This document shows positions 51,733-63,697 of a DNA stretch of 64,000 bases, one piece after another. The position numbers and the translations under genes were made by a program. The notes below the pieces were generated by a model. That model searched no databases and had not been told where the DNA came from. It worked only from the letters and a program-made list of their open reading frames with translations. This DNA comes from Candidatus Krumholzibacteriota bacterium. Its GTDB lineage: Bacteria; Krumholzibacteriota; Krumholzibacteriia; JAJRXK01. Location of the stretch: the NCBI GenBank assembly GCA_963764625.1, contig CAVXTH010000008.1, forward strand, positions 96,001-160,000, written 5' to 3'. The stretch's first letter is position 1; each line of letters opens with the position of its first letter.

Positions 51733-53136
51733 CTAGAACTGGAAGTAGATGAAGGGGCTGTTGCCAAAGGGGGCGTAGAGGAGAATGGCGATGAGCATTC
51801 CCACCACCACACCCCACATGAGCGGCTGCTTGAAGTCGATGATGAGTTCGCGGTCGTCCCGCAGAACCACCGCCAAGTGCAGGGCCGCCCCGAGCGCGAT
51901 GACCACCATGGCCTGCACGTAGTACCACTCGATGCCTCGCGAGTTCACGAAAGCGAGTTTTTGCAGGTAGGTCCACGCAGTGGTGAAGTCCTGGGAGCGG
52001 AAGAACACCCAGGTCACCAACACGAAGACGTAGGTCGCGGCCCACGAGAGAATCTTGCGCGGAAGACCGGGCGCGGGCGCGTTCTCCCCGCGCAGCGTCA
52101 GGTACAACTTGTGAACCGCCAGGGCCACCCCGTGCAGGCCGCCCCACACCACGAAATTCCATGAAGCTCCGTGCCACAGACCACCCAAAAGCATGGTGAG
52201 CATGAGGTTCACGTAGGTGCGCGCGCGACCCTTCCGGTTTCCTCCCAGGGAGATGTACAGATAGTCGCGCAACCATCCGCTGAGGGTGATGTGCCAGCGC
52301 CGCCAGAATTCAGTGACGTTCAGGCTGCGATAGGGATGCCGGAAGTTCACCGGCAACTCGAAGCCCATCATCCGGCCCACGCCGATGGCCATGTCACTGT
52401 AGCCCGAGAAGTCGTAGTAGATCTGGAAGGCGTAGGCGATGACGGCCATCCACGCGGTTCCCGACGAATAGGCTGCGGGGTGAGCGAACACCGGATCGAC
52501 GAAGGTGGCGAGGGTGTCGGCAAATAACACCTTCTTGGTGAACCCGCGCAGAAAGATGTCCAGGCCGGCCTGGATGTTCGACTTGCGCAGAGGATGCACA
52601 AACGCGAGCTGCGGCAAGAACTCAGCGCCCCGAACGATGGGCCCCGCCACCAACTGCGGGAAGAACGAGACGAAGAGCGCGAAGTCGCGGAAGTTGTGGG
52701 TGGCCGGAAGCTTCCTGCGATACACGTCGATGGAATAGCTCATCGTCTGGAAGGTGAAGAACGAAACCCCCACCGGCAGGATGATGTTGAGGTGCGGGAG
52801 GGTTACCCCCACCGCGCCGAACAGCGGCCTGAAATTTCCCAGGAAAAAGTTCGCGTACTTGAAAACGCTCAGAATGCCGAGGTTCGCAACCAAGCTCACC
52901 ACGAGCCATCGCTTACGCGCACCCTGGGTCGAGCTGCGCTCCATGAAGCGTCCCGCCGCGTAGTCGATGATGGTCGATACGAGAATGAGGAAGCAGAAGC
53001 GCCAATCCCACCAGCCGTAGAAGACGTAGCTCGCCACCAGGAGAAGGTTGCGGCGACCCTCTTCCCTGCGCAGCAAACCCAGACCCAAGAGGACCAGAGC
53101 CAAAAAGACAAAGAACTCGATCGAGGAAAAGATCAT
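51733..53136 (-). CDS. MBOAT O-acyltransferase (AlgI/PatA-like)
   Basis: PVGVSFFTFQ, FFPQLVAGPI, DFSGYSD, FWRRWHITL, GLWHGA. Confidence 0.93.
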   Translation of the reverse strand: MIFSSIEFFVFLALVLLGLGLLRREEGRRNLLLVASYVFYGWWDWRFCFLILVSTIIDYAAGRFMERSSTQGARKRWLVVSLVANLGILSVFKYANFFLGNFRPLFGAVGVTLPHLNIILPVGVSFFTFQTMSYSIDVYRRKLPATHNFRDFALFVSFFPQLVAGPIVRGAEFLPQLAFVHPLRKSNIQAGLDIFLRGFTKKVLFADTLATFVDPVFAHPAAYSSGTAWMAVIAYAFQIYYDFSGYSDMAIGVGRMMGFELPVNFRHPYRSLNVTEFWRRWHITLSGWLRDYLYISLGGNRKGRARTYVNLMLTMLLGGLWHGASWNFVVWGGLHGVALAVHKLYLTLRGENAPAPGLPRKILSWAATYVFVLVTWVFFRSQDFTTAWTYLQKLAFVNSRGIEWYYVQAMVVIALGAALHLAVVLRDDRELIIDFKQPLMWGVVVGMLIAILLYAPFGNSPFIYFQF

Positions 53137-54190
53137 GGGAGATGTTTCCTCAGCTCGGCCGCCAACAACTCCCCCACCACGCGATGGCCTCGTGCGTTCA
53201 TGTGGCCCTTTCCCATCTCACTGTTCTGGAATCCGTGACACGGTTGCCCGTGCAGGCGGTACTCCTTCAGCAGCGCATCGGTGGGATCGATGAGCGTGGC
53301 CCCGCAGCTTGCGGCGAACTGGCGGTATACCTCGCGGTGCTGTGGGGTGTAGAGCTGACCCCCGTTCTTGGAATAGTCGATCCGCGGGATGTAGAGATAG
53401 ACGATGTCGGGATACAGACGAGACATTCGCTGGTGCAGGTATGTCAGCATGTCCACCGCGTCGGCCGGAAAGCTCGTGTCGAAACTCTCGGCCGCCTGCG
53501 CCGGCGGCGGGGAGAAGTGTTTGGCGAGCCGGTCTCGCTCCAGACGAGTCAATACGTCCGTCCGCCTCTCGACGAGGGTGAAGAGGGCGGAGAGGTGCTT
53601 CGCCTCGGCTCCCCAACGGTAAATCCTGTCGGCGGGTGGCGACTTTCTTGGGGATGACGAGTTGGTATCCGTCGTCCGTCCGGCGGAGATGGATCTCCCA
53701 TTCGCGCGTGAACTCCTGTAGATCGAGGTCGTTGAGCTGGATGATCAGAACATCGGGGTCGAATTCGGGTGCGCGCAGCTTGACGAAGGCGGCGATATCC
53801 GGTGGCCCCCAGCCCGAGCGCCCCGCGTTGCACACTTCCAGCCCGTCGACCTCGGACTCGGCGATGCTGCCAAAGTTCTGGTCCGGATACACTTGCATCG
53901 CCTCGGTGAAGGAGTCTCCCACCATCAGGGCCCGCAGCCGCGGCTTTTGGGGCAAAGGATCCGCGTCGTTGAAGCCGTAGCAGATTCATACGGGCTCTGC
54001 TGTAGCCCTCGGAGCTGAAGACCTGGCGCGAATAGGGGCGTTGAAAGTACTCGAACTGCGGATCGGGCTCGGTGGTCGAAGGGGTGGCAATCCATGAGCG
54101 CAGAACGAACTCCATGGCAAGCAGCACGAAGACGACCGCGCCGAAGCCGGCCAAAACCCGCTTGAAATGGGATAGGGACGGTGTGGTCAT
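53133..54190 (-). CDS. Membrane-anchored SGNH/GDSL-like protein (MBOAT partner) with two apparent frameshifts
   Basis: TM anchor, GDSFTE, NAGRSG, LND and GHMNARGH blocks lie in three frames, with junctions at ~53985 and ~53645. Confidence 0.75.
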
Positions 54191-54278
54191 GAGGGGAAAA
54201 AGTATAGCACAGCGCATTCCAGCCACGCGAGAGTGGGAGAGGCGCGCGGCGACTTTACTTTCTTGAGCGCCGGCGGAC

Positions 54279-55706
54279 TCAGCCACCGTGCCCGAGGAGC
54301 TTCTTCAGGGTCTCCACCAACTTGCCGCGCTCCAAGGAGAACTGTCCGGGGCGCTGCTGCACCCACTCGGTCCGGTCATCCATCGAGTCCGCCGCGCGCG
54401 CGCCTTCCTCGAGATCCTTGATCGTTACCTTTTCTTCCTTCAGCTCATCCTCACCCAGGATGATGGCGTAGGGAATCCGCCAGAACGACGCGTACTTGAG
54501 CTGGTCTCCGAGGCGCGCCTTGGGGTTGAGGTAGATCTCCGCATTGAACCCCGCCTCGCGGAGCTCGCGCACCAGGCCCTGGTAGGTGAGGAGGAGCTTA
54601 CGGTCTATGATGGTGACGAGAACTTCGGTCGCGGTGCCGTCGGGGCTCCTCTTCTCGAGCTGATCGAGCGCGGCCAGCAGCCGGTCGATTCCGATCGAGG
54701 CCCCCACGCCGGGCAACTGTTCTCCACTGAAGCGGGAAACGAGTTCGTCGTAGCGCCCGCCGCCCATGATCGAGCCGTAGTCGGGAAGCTCGTCGAGCGT
54801 GGCCTCGAAGATGGGCCCGGTGTAGTAGTCCATGCCGCGCGCCAGTTTGGGCGAGAAGCGCACCTGGTCCGCGCACCCCATAACCTGGAGGTGCGCCCGC
54901 AATTCGTCGATCTCGCGCAGCGCGGTCTCGGCGCCCTTCGCCGAGGACAAAAAGGCCTTCGACTTGGCCACCAGACCGTCGTCGGTCGCATCTTGCAGCT
55001 GCAGGAAGTTGCTCAGAGCGTCGATCTGCGAATCCGGGAGGCCGAGCCCGGGGATGGGCGCGCCCGATTCCGGATCTGTCCGGCCCGGCCCCAATTCGTC
55101 CCGCACACCCTCGGCGCCAATCTTATCTTCCTTGTCGATGATGCGGATGACGCTGGCGGCGCGGCTTGGCTGAACCTCGGCCAGCCTGAGCGCGGCGTTG
55201 AGCACGCCGCGGTGGTTCCAGCGAATCGTGTGCGCGGGCACCCCCAGCGCACGCAGCACCTGACTCATCGCGCCCAGAATCTCCGCGTCGGCCAGCATGG
55301 AGCGACTTCCCACCGTATCGATGTCGAACTGCAGGAACTCGCGAAACCGCCCGGCGCCCGGTTTGTCCACGCGGAACACGGGACCCACCTGATAGCGCTT
55401 GAAGGGGCGGCGCAGTTCGGGGTGCGAGGCCACGAAACGCGCCAAAGGAACGGTGAGATCGAAGCGCAGGCCCAGCTCCGCGTCTTCCTCTTCGTGTCTC
55501 CAGCTGAAAATGCGCTGGGAGGTTTCGCCCGCCTTGGCGCCGACGAGCACTTCCCTGGTCTCGATGATGGGGGTCTCCAGAGGCTGAAAGCCAAAGAGTT
55601 CGAAAACACCCTGAATGGTCTCGATCATCCGCTGACGGCGCCGAATCGGTGATCCGACGAGATCACGCATCCCCTTGGCGAGTTTGGCTTCGATGCGCTT
55701 GGCCAT
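54279..55706 (-). CDS. hisS: Histidyl-tRNA synthetase, divergent (alphaproteobacterial-like) type
   Basis: KGMRD, LRFDLTVP, FRVDKPGAGRFREFLQFDID, ARGMDYYTG, GGGRYD, anticodon-binding domain. Confidence 0.95.
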   Translation of the reverse strand: MAKRIEAKLAKGMRDLVGSPIRRRQRMIETIQGVFELFGFQPLETPIIETREVLVGAKAGETSQRIFSWRHEEEDAELGLRFDLTVPLARFVASHPELRRPFKRYQVGPVFRVDKPGAGRFREFLQFDIDTVGSRSMLADAEILGAMSQVLRALGVPAHTIRWNHRGVLNAALRLAEVQPSRAASVIRIIDKEDKIGAEGVRDELGPGRTDPESGAPIPGLGLPDSQIDALSNFLQLQDATDDGLVAKSKAFLSSAKGAETALREIDELRAHLQVMGCADQVRFSPKLARGMDYYTGPIFEATLDELPDYGSIMGGGRYDELVSRFSGEQLPGVGASIGIDRLLAALDQLEKRSPDGTATEVLVTIIDRKLLLTYQGLVRELREAGFNAEIYLNPKARLGDQLKYASFWRIPYAIILGEDELKEEKVTIKDLEEGARAADSMDDRTEWVQQRPGQFSLERGKLVETLKKLLGHGG

Positions 55707-55747
55707 GAGCTAGAGTCTCGGGCCTTCTGAGGCAGAGGAAGGAGGCA

Positions 55748-55824
55748 TGGTACTGGCGGGTGGATTCGAACCACCGACCCCCAGATCCACAATCTGGTGC
55801 TCTAACCAACTGAGCTACGCCAGC
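55748..55824 (-). tRNA. tRNA-His(GUG), CCA encoded, no encoded G-1, A73
   Basis: GCTGGCG TA GCTC AGTTGGTTA GAGC A CCAGA TT GTG GA TCTGG GGGTC GGTGG TTCGAAT CCACC CGCCAGT A CCA folds into a full cloverleaf. Confidence 0.96.
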
Positions 55825-55836
55825 ACGCGGGGGTCT

Positions 55837-55866
55837 AAGCTAATCGCGGGCCGTTGGCAGTGTCAA
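55837..55866 (-). promoter_or_regulatory. Sigma70 promoter for tRNA-His-hisS
   Basis: TTGACA-N18-TAGCTT ending 12 bp before tRNA position +1. Confidence 0.7.
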
Positions 55867-61219: not shown

Positions 61220-63697
61220 CTAGCTCTCGTCGGCCTCGTCTTCGTCGTTCTCCAGCTCCGAACTCGTGGCGACCGGCGCCACCGTCGCCACCGCGTCCTC
61301 TTCGTCCAGATTGATGAGGCGTACGCCCTGGGTGTTGCGTCCCATGCTGGAGATGCTGTCCATCGCCATCTTGATCACGATTCCGTTGCGGGTGATCACC
61401 ATGAGACTCTCTTCCTCCCGCGCGAGCTGCACGCCGACCAAAGGACCGTTGCGGCGGGTGATGTTCATCGTGATGATTCCCTTTCCGCCCCGGCCCTGCG
61501 GCCGGTACTCGTCCAACGGCGTCCTCTTTCCGTAACCGTTCTCGGTCACCGAGAGCACGCTCACCTCCTCGGCGGGATCGGTCACGATCATTCCCACCAC
61601 GCGATCGTCCCCGGAGGAGAGCTCGATGCCCTTCACGCCGCGAGCCGTGCGCCCCATGGGCCGCACGTCGTTCTCGTCGAAGCGGATCGACTTCCCCGAC
61701 CTGAGGGCCAGAATGACGTGATTCGTCCCGTCGGTGAGGGCCGCATCCATGAGGCGGTCCCCCTCGACGATGTCGATGGCGCGGATGCCCGAACGGCGGA
61801 TGTTGGAGAACTGATCGAGGGAGGTCCGTTTCACCAGACCCGCCTCGGTCACGAAGAGCACATAGTGGTCTTCGTCGAATTCACCCGGCACCGGTACGAT
61901 GGCACGCACGATCTCGTCTTTTTCCAGGAGTAGCAGATTGACGATCGCCTTCCCCTTGGCGGCGCGTCCGGCCTGGGGAATCTGGTGCACTTTCAACCAG
62001 TGGCAGCGGCCGCTGCTGGTGAACACGAGAAGGTACTGGTGGGTGTTGGCCACGAAGAGATGCTCGACCCAGTCCTCGTCCTTGAGGGTCGCTCCCGTCA
62101 CGCCGCGGCCGCCGCGACCCTGCAACCGATAGGTGTCCACCGGAAGCCTCTTGACGTACTGGCCGTGGCTGATCGTCACGACCATGTCTTCCTCCGGAAT
62201 GAGATCCTCGAGAGAAAGGTCTCCCTCGACGTCGACGATCTCGGTGCGCCTCTCGTCTCCGAATTTCTCCCGCAGATCCAGGAGCTCGTCCTTGATGATC
62301 GAGAGCTGCATGCTCCGGCTGGCGAGAATGCTGCGCAGCCGTTCGATTTCTTGAATGAGCTCGAAATACTCCTTCTCGATCTTGTCGCGCTCGAGCCCGG
62401 TCAATCTCTGCAGGCGCAGATCCAGAATGGCCTGGGCTTGGATCTCGCTCAGCTCGAATCGCTCCATGAGACGGTTGCGCGCGGTAGAGGGGTCCGGGCT
62501 CTTCTTGATGAGTTCGACCACTTCGTCGATGTTCTCCAGGGCGATCCGATAGCCTTCGAGAATGTGCGCGCGCGCCTCCGCTTTCCGTAGCTCGAACTCG
62601 GTGCGGCGCACCACGACCTCTTCGCGAAACTTCAGATACTCCACCATCATGTCTTTGAGGCTCAGAAGTCTCGGCTGCGTGCCGACCAGGGCGATGTTGT
62701 TGACGCCGAAGGTGGACTGCATGTTCGTGTGCTTGAAGAGCTGGTTCAGCACGACTTCGCGGTGCGCATCTTTCTTGAGCTGAATGACGATACGCATTCC
62801 CTTGCGATCGCTCTCGTCGGCCAGATCGGCGATTCCCTCGATGAGCCCGCCGCGCACGTGCTGCGCGATCTTCTGGATCAACTCCGACTTGTTCACGAAG
62901 TAGGGAATCTCGGTGACGATGATGGCTTCGCGTCCGTTCTTGAGTTCCTCGGTCTCGCACCGCGCGCGCATCACGATGCGCCCGCGGCCGGTCGCGATGT
63001 AATCGACGATTCCCTGGCGGCCGTGGATGATTCCGCCGGTGGGAAAATCGGGTCCCTTGACGAACTCCAAGAGCTCGATGTCATCCAGCTCGGGATCCTC
63101 GAGCAGAGCCCCGAGACCGTCGATGATCTCCCGCAGGTTGTGGGGCGGGCAGTTGGTCGCCATGCCGACCGCGATCCCGGTGCTTCCGTTCACCAGGAGA
63201 TTGGGAATGGCGCTGGGAAGAACCGAGGGCATTTCCCGCGAGCCATCGTAGTTGGGAACGAAGTCGACGGTTTCCTTGTCGAGGTCGCGCAGGATTTCCA
63301 TGGCGAAGGGGGCGAGCCGCGCCTCGGTGTATCGTTCGGCGGCGGGGCTGTCGCCGTCGACCGAACCGAAGTTGCCCTGGCCATCCACCAGCGGATATCT
63401 CAGGGAAAAGTCTTGCGCCATGCGCACCAGGGTGTCGTAGACGGCGGCCGTACCGTGGGGGTGATAGTTACCCGTGGTGTCACCGGTGATCTTCGCGCTC
63501 TTGCGATAGGGCCGGCCCGGCGAGAGGTTGAGATCGTTCATCGCGGTGAGGACCCGGCGATGCACCGGTTTGAGACCATCGCGAACGTCCGGCAGCGCGC
63601 GGGATATGATCACGGACATCGAATAGTCCAGATACGCGGACTTCATTTTGATTTCGATGTTTACCGTCTTGATGCGATCTTGCGATTCTTCCGCCAT
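61220..63697 (-). CDS. gyrA: DNA gyrase subunit A
   Basis: [23 protein letters not shown] (catalytic Tyr), GyrA-box QGRGGRG, beta-pinwheel repeats. Confidence 0.97.

Follow-up and report, generated by a model that had tools for sequence, protein, structure and literature searches.

How does a bacterium recognize its histidine transfer RNA (tRNA-His) when the guanosine at position -1 (G-1), among the most conserved identity marks in biology, is not encoded in the gene? The question is raised by a stretch of 64,000 nucleotides (nt), called the window below, from a Candidatus Krumholzibacteriota bacterium (contig CAVXTH010000008.1 of assembly GCA_963764625.1, positions 96,001 to 160,000), in which a tRNA-His gene of this kind stands directly upstream of hisS, the gene for histidyl-tRNA synthetase (HisRS). 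Our interpretation, to which we assign a probability of about 0.8, is that the two genes form a self-contained, G-1-independent operon that is the only histidine-charging system of the cell, and that the tRNA and the enzyme were acquired horizontally and replaced the canonical pair. A broader proposition, which we regard as somewhat better than an even bet, is that the G-1-less pair is an orthogonal "identity cassette", a two-gene operon that travels from one bacterium to another and, across at least eight phyla, has repeatedly supplanted the canonical G-1/C73 system; that of the Alphaproteobacteria would be one offshoot and possibly itself a recipient. We refer to the tRNA-His gene and hisS together as the cassette.

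The tRNA-His gene and its linkage to hisS

The only tRNA called by ARAGORN in the window is a tRNA-His with the anticodon GTG, at 55748-55824 on the minus strand, where the Rfam tRNA model scores 73.1 bits. Read on that strand, the two sides of the acceptor stem are 5' GCTGGCG and 3' CGCCAGT, which gives G1-U72 followed by C2-G71; the discriminator is A73, the CCA end is encoded, the base at -1 (55825) is T, and the 9-nt D-loop, AGTTGGTTA, contains U20a. The ATG of hisS lies at 55706, 41 nt 3' of the CCA, and the open reading frame (ORF), 54279-55706, encodes 475 amino acids (aa) that score 366.7 bits against TIGR00442 (cut-off 286.75 bits). An earlier sequence-only reading of this DNA had described the tRNA as lacking G-1, with G1-U72, A73 and T at -1, and had placed hisS 41 bp downstream of it; both descriptions hold on the minus strand. 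It had also placed the two genes behind a common TTGACA promoter. That hexamer is present at 55861-55866, 5' of tRNA-His and separated by a 17-nt spacer from TTAGCT, and it is invariant in 10/10 loci of the window's family (f1), but a sigma-70 consensus scan called 0 promoter sites at the cassette because the -10 hexamer is weak; we infer promoter function from the conservation only. The features of the locus are as follows.

55861..55866, minus strand: -35-like hexamer TTGACA (sequence reading; 10/10 family loci)
55838..55843, minus strand: -10-like hexamer TTAGCT, a weak match to TATAAT (TTAGCT, TTAGTT or TTTACT at this position across the 10 family loci)
55748..55824, minus strand: tRNA-His(GTG) without G-1, with T-1 (55825), G1-U72, C2-G71, A73, a 9-nt D-loop and CCA (ARAGORN, Rfam)
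55707..55747, minus strand: 41-nt spacer between tRNA and hisS, without a terminator-like site (sequence reading, terminator scan)
54279..55706, minus strand: hisS, 475 aa, a divergent HisRS of the G-1-independent type (TIGR00442, 366.7 bits)
55341..55373, minus strand: motif-2 loop RVDKPGAGRFR, residues 112-122, Gly replacing the canonical Gln (alignment)
55038..55094, minus strand: insert LGPGRTDPESGAPIPGLGL in the insertion domain, residues 205-223 (alignment)
54345..54401, minus strand: insert ARAADSMDDRTEWVQQRPG in the anticodon-binding domain, residues 436-454 (alignment)
54207..54228, minus strand: terminator-like hairpin and T-run after the hisS stop (terminator scan)

Sequence features of the enzyme

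The motif-2 loop of the window enzyme (RVDKPGAGRFR) compares with RNEKPGPGRFRQF in Alphaproteobacteria and RYDRPQAGRYRQF in the canonical enzymes of the same phylum, in which RPQAGR is found in 19/19 loci; Amrine et al. 2014 (PMC3937112) distinguish HisRS types by Gly123 or Gln123 in this loop. The insert at residues 205-223 is present in the alphaproteobacterial enzymes and in all other aligned enzymes of the same type; it is absent from the HisRS of Bacteroides finegoldii, and canonical enzymes have a different insertion domain there. In the alignment, residues 436-454 match an insert of the Cereibacter and Sinorhizobium enzymes that the canonical and Bacteroides enzymes lack; an insert in the anticodon-binding domain has been proposed as the likely anticodon reader (PMC3064791). 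The window HisRS is 43-47% identical to enzymes of its type in other phyla, 40% to those of Cereibacter and Sinorhizobium, 34% to that of B. finegoldii and 27-28% to the canonical enzymes of its own phylum. Among PDB entries it matches 6nhi, 3net and human HARS with E values of 6e-66 to 4e-57, and canonical bacterial HisRS far more weakly (1e-28 to 1e-31). In one relative of the same family (G005, L015:808-2334) the enzyme carries a further Gly/Ala-rich stretch of about 31 residues, inserted ahead of the first histidine-binding motif, and its match to the hisS family model is broken into two pieces.

Comparison with known systems

The closest described counterpart is the pair of the alphaproteobacterial RRCH clade, which, like that of the window, has no templated G-1, carries G1-U72, C2-G71, A73 and a 9-nt D-loop, has a HisRS with KPG replacing RPQ, a GxGRxDxESG insert and an insert in the anticodon-binding domain, and is the sole histidine system of its cell. 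The tRNA-His genes of Sinorhizobium and Methylobacterium have T(-1), G1-U72, A73 and a D-loop identical to that of the window. The claims that the pair is of the alphaproteobacterial type, and that the enzyme has this loop and this insert, are thus borne out at the level of sequence, by the tRNA hallmarks reported in PMC3064791, the identical D-loop, the replacement of Gln by Gly and the two inserts common to Cereibacter and Sinorhizobium. For Caulobacter crescentus it has been reported that G-1 gave HisRS no gain, that U72C cost 91-fold and anticodon changes 91- to 1000-fold, that the C. crescentus and Escherichia coli histidine pairs do not cross-charge, and that alphaproteobacterial tRNA-His starts at +1 (PMC3064791). 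The two systems differ in that the window's host is Krumholzibacteria-like, its HisRS reaches only about 40% identity and lies in a different subclade, and it lacks an 8-residue insert after the first histidine-binding motif that is present in Alphaproteobacteria, in genome G029 (discussed below) and in a Planctomycetota row. They also differ in arrangement: the window has tRNA and hisS in one operon, whereas in 4/4 alphaproteobacterial loci no tRNA came closer than 3 kb to hisS, which is followed by hisZ in the two loci with annotation (Cereibacter and Ruegeria).

The canonical bacterial system (E. coli; the Thermus thermophilus complex 4RDX) shares with the window the TIGR00442 family, the anticodon and the catalytic motifs. 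Its templated G-1:C73 pair is kept by ribonuclease P (RNase P) and read by HisRS, whereas the window has neither G-1 nor C73, has U72 instead of C72 and has lost the loop Gln. Templated G-1, C73, G1-C72 and the loop Gln are therefore 0/4 in the window, and the rest of the phylum, as sampled, has all of them. The G-1-independent systems found in Trypanosoma brucei and Acanthamoeba castellanii, both protists, resemble the window's in having a tRNA-His without G-1, no Thg1 and A73, as reported in PMC4338351 (Rao and Jackman 2015) and PMC9976931, but they belong to eukaryotic lineages and have a separate origin; our sequence comparison with them consists of PDB matches to T. cruzi and T. brucei (E about 1e-35). 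The addition of G-1 by Thg1, as in eukaryotes and some archaea, is unlike the window's system, since Thg1 has 0 matches in the window's genome.

In the accessible portions of PMC3245924, PMC9976931, PMC3937112, PMC5389517 and PMC5370408 a bacterial G-1-less system is described only for Alphaproteobacteria or their phages, and those of PMC5388404 and PMC11580382 make no mention of one. A literature search that left supplements and subscription journals outside found no report of a G-1-less pair in bacterial phyla beyond Alphaproteobacteria.

A single histidine system in a host outside the Alphaproteobacteria

Searches for other tRNA-His genes, a second hisS and Thg1 had been suggested along with the first description of the locus. 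The genome that holds the window (G000; 3.57 Mb, 9 contigs, 96% complete) has 48 tRNA genes with 1 tRNA-His among them, and 1 hisS above the TIGR00442 cut-off; the other two matches fall in a single 659-aa frame that encodes another synthetase. Thg1 (PF04446) gave 0 matches in this 96%-complete genome, with a positive control in Methanosarcina, and a type-A RNase P RNA was found at 301 bits. No second hisS-like match to the HisRS query was found in 10/10 genomes of the family, and the hisS family model revealed none in G000, G005 and G006. The tRNA-His feature is not a matter of chance: this is the only tRNA-His of 48 tRNAs and C73 occurs in 0/45 of those with an encoded CCA. G1-U72 is also found in tRNA-Lys(CTT) and in both tRNA-Glu genes of this genome, and A73 accompanies it in tRNA-Lys(CTT) and tRNA-Glu(TTC). 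U72 and A73 alone thus cannot mark tRNA-His in this cell, and therefore HisRS must read the anticodon.

The host had been suspected to lie outside the Alphaproteobacteria, and its protein relatives support this. The window's GyrA (61223-63697, minus strand) has 93% identity with a protein that bears the label Candidatus Krumholzibacteria; the organism names among the 120 best GyrA matches are Candidatus Krumholzibacteria (twice) or plain "bacterium", with no alphaproteobacterial name. HisRS relatives at 87% identity are likewise labelled Candidatus Krumholzibacteria, and the HisRS of genome G058 is labelled Krumholzibacteriota. G029 carries the submitter label Candidatus Latescibacteria and is placed by GTDB in the same class as the window's genome.

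Distribution within the phylum

We took a census of this HisRS type in 208 genomes of the same GTDB phylum with the window HisRS as query (E <= 1e-60). It was found in 14/208 genomes, namely in 10/10 of family f1 (the window's own included), 1/12 of f6 (G029), 2/43 of f4 (G057 and G058) and 1/13 of f8 (G204), and in 0/130 genomes of the other five families. G029 is the only one of 3 genomes in its own genus (g18) to have it. In 14/14 of the matching genomes the gene immediately upstream of hisS is a tRNA-His with G1-U72 and A73, its base at -1 being T in 13/14 and G in one family member.

The other genomes of the phylum have a canonical HisRS, about 30% identical to that of the window. For their tRNA-His we sampled 62 loci of the remaining genomes, 3 of which had no tRNA-His; the resulting 59 genes came from 58 genomes (one gene occurring twice), and 59/59 have G-1, G1-C72 and C73. 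Enzyme type and tRNA type therefore covary completely in this sample. The tRNA-His genes were located by IUPAC patterns, one of which matched only 117/208 genomes; a tRNA-His covariance model was tried as a finder and dropped as unspecific, since other tRNAs scored about 80 bits. GyrA identity to the window's genome declines smoothly with distance, from 86 to 64%, while that of HisRS drops from 64% within the family to about 30% outside it.

A canonical hisS in decay in genus g18

The replacement itself appears to be recorded in genus g18. In G046 and G047, congeners of G029, the canonical hisS is intact (434 and 430 bits) and a canonical tRNA-His stands within a tRNA cluster. G029 has the cassette and also a relic of the canonical hisS, which lies where synteny with G047 would put that gene, flanked by a conserved upstream gene and aspS; the flanks of this site are 77-78% identical in DNA sequence between G029 and G047. 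The relic has lost motif 2 by deletion and both of its histidine-binding motifs are destroyed, although its C-terminal anticodon-binding domain is still similar. No canonical tRNA-His is found beside the conserved tRNA-Lys(CTT) in G029. The cassette lies at the right end of a stretch of about 9 kb that interrupts a region contiguous in G047, and its flanks are syntenic with G047. On these comparisons a canonical hisS would here be caught decaying after the arrival of the cassette. No relics of a canonical hisS were found in G057, G058, G204, G005 and G006.

The relic is an open frame of 479 codons (L268:517-1953 on G029:C5; the syntenic G047 hisS is at L266:1483-2775). It may be a fresh pseudogene, or its anticodon-binding domain may have been retained for another use.

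The pair in other phyla

The sequence-only reading had seen in this locus a second lineage with the pair. It is instead one of many such lineages, which are spread over at least eight phyla. When each GTDB species was scanned through a single genome, at least 598 stretches matched, of which 593 were confirmed, and we examined the best 80 loci (39-49% identity; 2 of them are records of G057 and G204). By their labels these 80 are Acidobacteriota (Thermoanaerobaculia, Vicinamibacteria, Bryobacterales, Blastocatellia and Holophagales), Planctomycetota, Bacteroidota, Ignavibacteriota, Hydrogenedentota, Zixibacteria and Nitrospirales (Nitrospirota). In 43 of them a tRNA-His precedes hisS by 1-361 nt on the same strand; in 1 it lies on the opposite strand and in 1 downstream; none was seen near hisS in the remaining 35, 4 of which had less than 250 nt of upstream sequence. 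When 10 of these 35 unlinked loci were followed up by a whole-genome search, a U72/A73 tRNA-His was found elsewhere in 10/10. The 54 tRNA-His genes obtained from other phyla have U72 in 54/54, A73 in 52/54 (G73 in 2/54) and G1 in 52/54, which brings U72 to 68/68 of the G-1-less genes examined. Their base at -1 is T in 36/54 and T or C in 41/54; it is G, C or A in 18/54.

Several loci depart from the common pattern. In the acidobacteriotal L148 and L209 the cassette tRNA-His has G73 replacing A73 and keeps G1-U72. In G209 (Bryobacterales) the tRNA-His (L232) has A1-U72 and A73, and the HisRS of the same genome (L191) keeps the loop Gln, in RADKPQPGR; this rule set could be an intermediate or a variant. 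The tRNA-His of L250 (G215, Planctomycetaceae) seems to begin with T, giving a U1-U72 mismatch that could be a bin error or a real variant. L176:2064-2390 (Thermoanaerobaculia) has two tandem G-1-less tRNA-His genes upstream of hisS that differ by one anticodon-stem base pair.

Phylogeny and transfer

Quick maximum-likelihood HisRS trees were built with 106 and 57 rows, with the Shimodaira-Hasegawa-like approximate likelihood ratio test (SH-aLRT) as the only measure of support. The 106-row tree leaves out 12/19 canonical rows (every third was kept), 2 duplicates and 9/80 loci missed by the hisS motif filter. The B. finegoldii HisRS was considered as a closer outgroup and rejected, and it was omitted from the 57-row set, on account of an end branch of 3.2 and an unreliable placement.

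Canonical and G-1-less-type enzymes are separated by a split with 100% SH-aLRT, on branches of about 5 changes per column. The window HisRS falls in the same large clade as the alphaproteobacterial enzymes and, as these quick trees are drawn, outside their subclade of 19-24 rows. The HisRS phylogeny that had been proposed as a check thus sets the enzyme apart from the canonical ones. The alphaproteobacterial enzymes (98-99%) share their subclade (95-100%) with those of Planctomycetota, Blastocatellia, "Lernaella" and G029; the enzymes of G057 and G058 group with a Zixibacteria row, and that of G204 lies within Acidobacteriota. The approximately unbiased (AU) test, applied to the 57-row set, rejects a tree in which the phylum's 11 rows are united in one clade (log-likelihood, lnL, 517.7 lower; p 1.2e-5), and therefore there were at least three acquisitions, by f1, by G029 and by G057 with G058. 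G204 is a possible fourth.

In a tblastn search of plasmid and chromid records, the hisS genes of Cereibacter, Ruegeria, Sinorhizobium, Methylobacterium, Paracoccus and others were 50-55% identical to the enzyme of G029. We dropped the claim that Alphaproteobacteria are nested within the cassette lineages, since a tree that holds them with the canonical outgroup is 9.7 lnL units above the free quick tree and is not rejected (p-AU 0.774).

When the five distinct G-1-less tRNAs of the phylum are compared with G-1-less tRNAs from other phyla, identity is 86.5-94.6%, against 71.6-78.4% for the canonical tRNA-His of their own phylum. Since tRNAs are short and a common enzyme could constrain them alike, this similarity supports joint transfer without proving it. 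The suggestion that tRNA-His and hisS moved together horizontally, as a single linked unit, is supported by the linkage in 14/14 genomes and by the displacement in G029.

Proposed mechanism and alternative explanations

We propose that promoter, tRNA-His, hisS and terminator form one operon whose genes would be co-transcribed, and that RNase P, with its type-A RNA, would cut at the normal +1 position after U-1, leaving a 7-bp acceptor stem with no G-1. In the HisRS the Gln that recognizes G-1:C73 is gone and an insert has been added to the anticodon-binding domain; the enzyme would pick out its tRNA through the GUG anticodon, U72 and A73, as in C. crescentus. The pair would have been acquired horizontally by the ancestor of the family and would have replaced the canonical G-1/C73 pair there. 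Because the two systems do not cross-charge (PMC3064791), an incoming cassette could coexist with the resident pair until the latter decays. The position of the pyrimidine before the putative RNase P cut fits cleavage at +1, in that it is at -2 in 59/59 canonical genes and at -1 in the G-1-less ones (T in 13/14 genes of the phylum, T or C in 41/54 of those from other phyla).

A number of points weigh against this interpretation. The mature 5' end and the charging rules are carried over by analogy from an enzyme that is 40% identical, as is the presumed orthogonality to the canonical pair, which is taken from C. crescentus. No integrase or transposase domain was found near the G029 cassette in the 10 ORFs scanned (4 with Pfam matches). 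The group submitted to the AU test was defined by taxonomy and tested after the tree had been viewed, and the contig with the G204 cassette, 6.2 kb long and from a bin that is 84% complete, could have been assigned to the wrong genome. The f1 enzymes form a single clade (100%) on a long stem of 0.93-0.98 changes per column whose sister is without support, and therefore no donor can be named. Finally, the T at -1 is able to pair with A73.

The last of these points opens an alternative that we think improbable, in which the mature tRNA-His does carry a residue at -1, either because U-1 is kept by its pairing with A73 and RNase P cuts one base further out, as it does with G-1:C73 in canonical bacteria, or because a G is added by an unknown enzyme, and HisRS reads an 8-bp stem. 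Apart from its ability to pair, T at -1 is indeed more frequent in these genes (13/14 in the phylum and 36/54 in other phyla) than among all tRNAs of the window's genome (15/48). A U immediately 5' of the cut is, however, the usual preference of RNase P, and a required base would not vary as this one does, being G, C or A in 18/54 genes of other phyla and G in one family member. The T-1 of Sinorhizobium and Methylobacterium argues the same way, as these are Alphaproteobacteria, whose tRNA-His is reported to start at +1 (PMC3064791). An added G-1 is opposed by the 0 matches to Thg1, and a residue at -1 of either kind by an enzyme loop without the Gln that would read the -1:73 pair.

The long stem and unsupported sister of f1 would also suit an origin without transfer, whether by co-evolution of tRNA-His and HisRS in place, convergent with Alphaproteobacteria, or by descent from the ancestor of the phylum with a later arrival of the canonical pair; in-place adaptation of the tRNA was proposed for Alphaproteobacteria by Ardell and Andersson (as cited in PMC3064791). 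We give such an origin little chance, considering that the enzyme is closer to its type in other phyla (43-47% identity) than to the phylum's canonical enzymes (27-28%), that about 5 changes per column separate the two types, and that 194/208 genomes of the phylum are without this HisRS type. The body of the window tRNA (positions 8-65) likewise is 93.2% identical to acidobacteriotal G-1-less tRNAs, compared with 83.1% to the closest canonical tRNA from its own phylum, and three inserts or loop changes are common to distant phyla. That the cassette is foreign DNA brought in by a binning or assembly artefact deserves mention, as all the genomes are metagenome bins and G204 offers a case on a short contig, but we regard it as very improbable: the window's contig of 216,583 bases also carries the Krumholzibacteria-like gyrA, the cassette is present in 10/10 genomes of the family with a second hisS-like match in 0/10, synteny with G047 holds on both sides of the cassette in G029, and G057 is a single contig of 4.1 Mb.

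A neighbouring gene

At 53133-53955 on the minus strand, beside an MBOAT-like gene (51733-53136), two ORFs (53218-53955 and 53133-53552) overlap in different frames. Judged from the ORF list, they look like one acyl-esterase-like gene that has been split by a frameshift.

Significance

The state of G-1 on tRNA-His has previously been used as a phylogenetic character to place SAR11. The present data add what is probably the same recognition logic in a new clade, with linkage in an operon and repeated transfer: by its sequence marks, this rule set is found not only in a Krumholzibacteria-like family but in many further phyla, usually as a linked tRNA-synthetase operon. This provides a concrete example of how horizontal transfer could exchange a tRNA identity rule, which has been thought hard, and it would place many natural orthogonal HisRS/tRNA pairs at the disposal of genetic-code engineering. 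It also invites a fresh look at the origin of the alphaproteobacterial system; if the pair is a mobile identity cassette, this would undercut the use of that system as a unique synapomorphy that arose only once.

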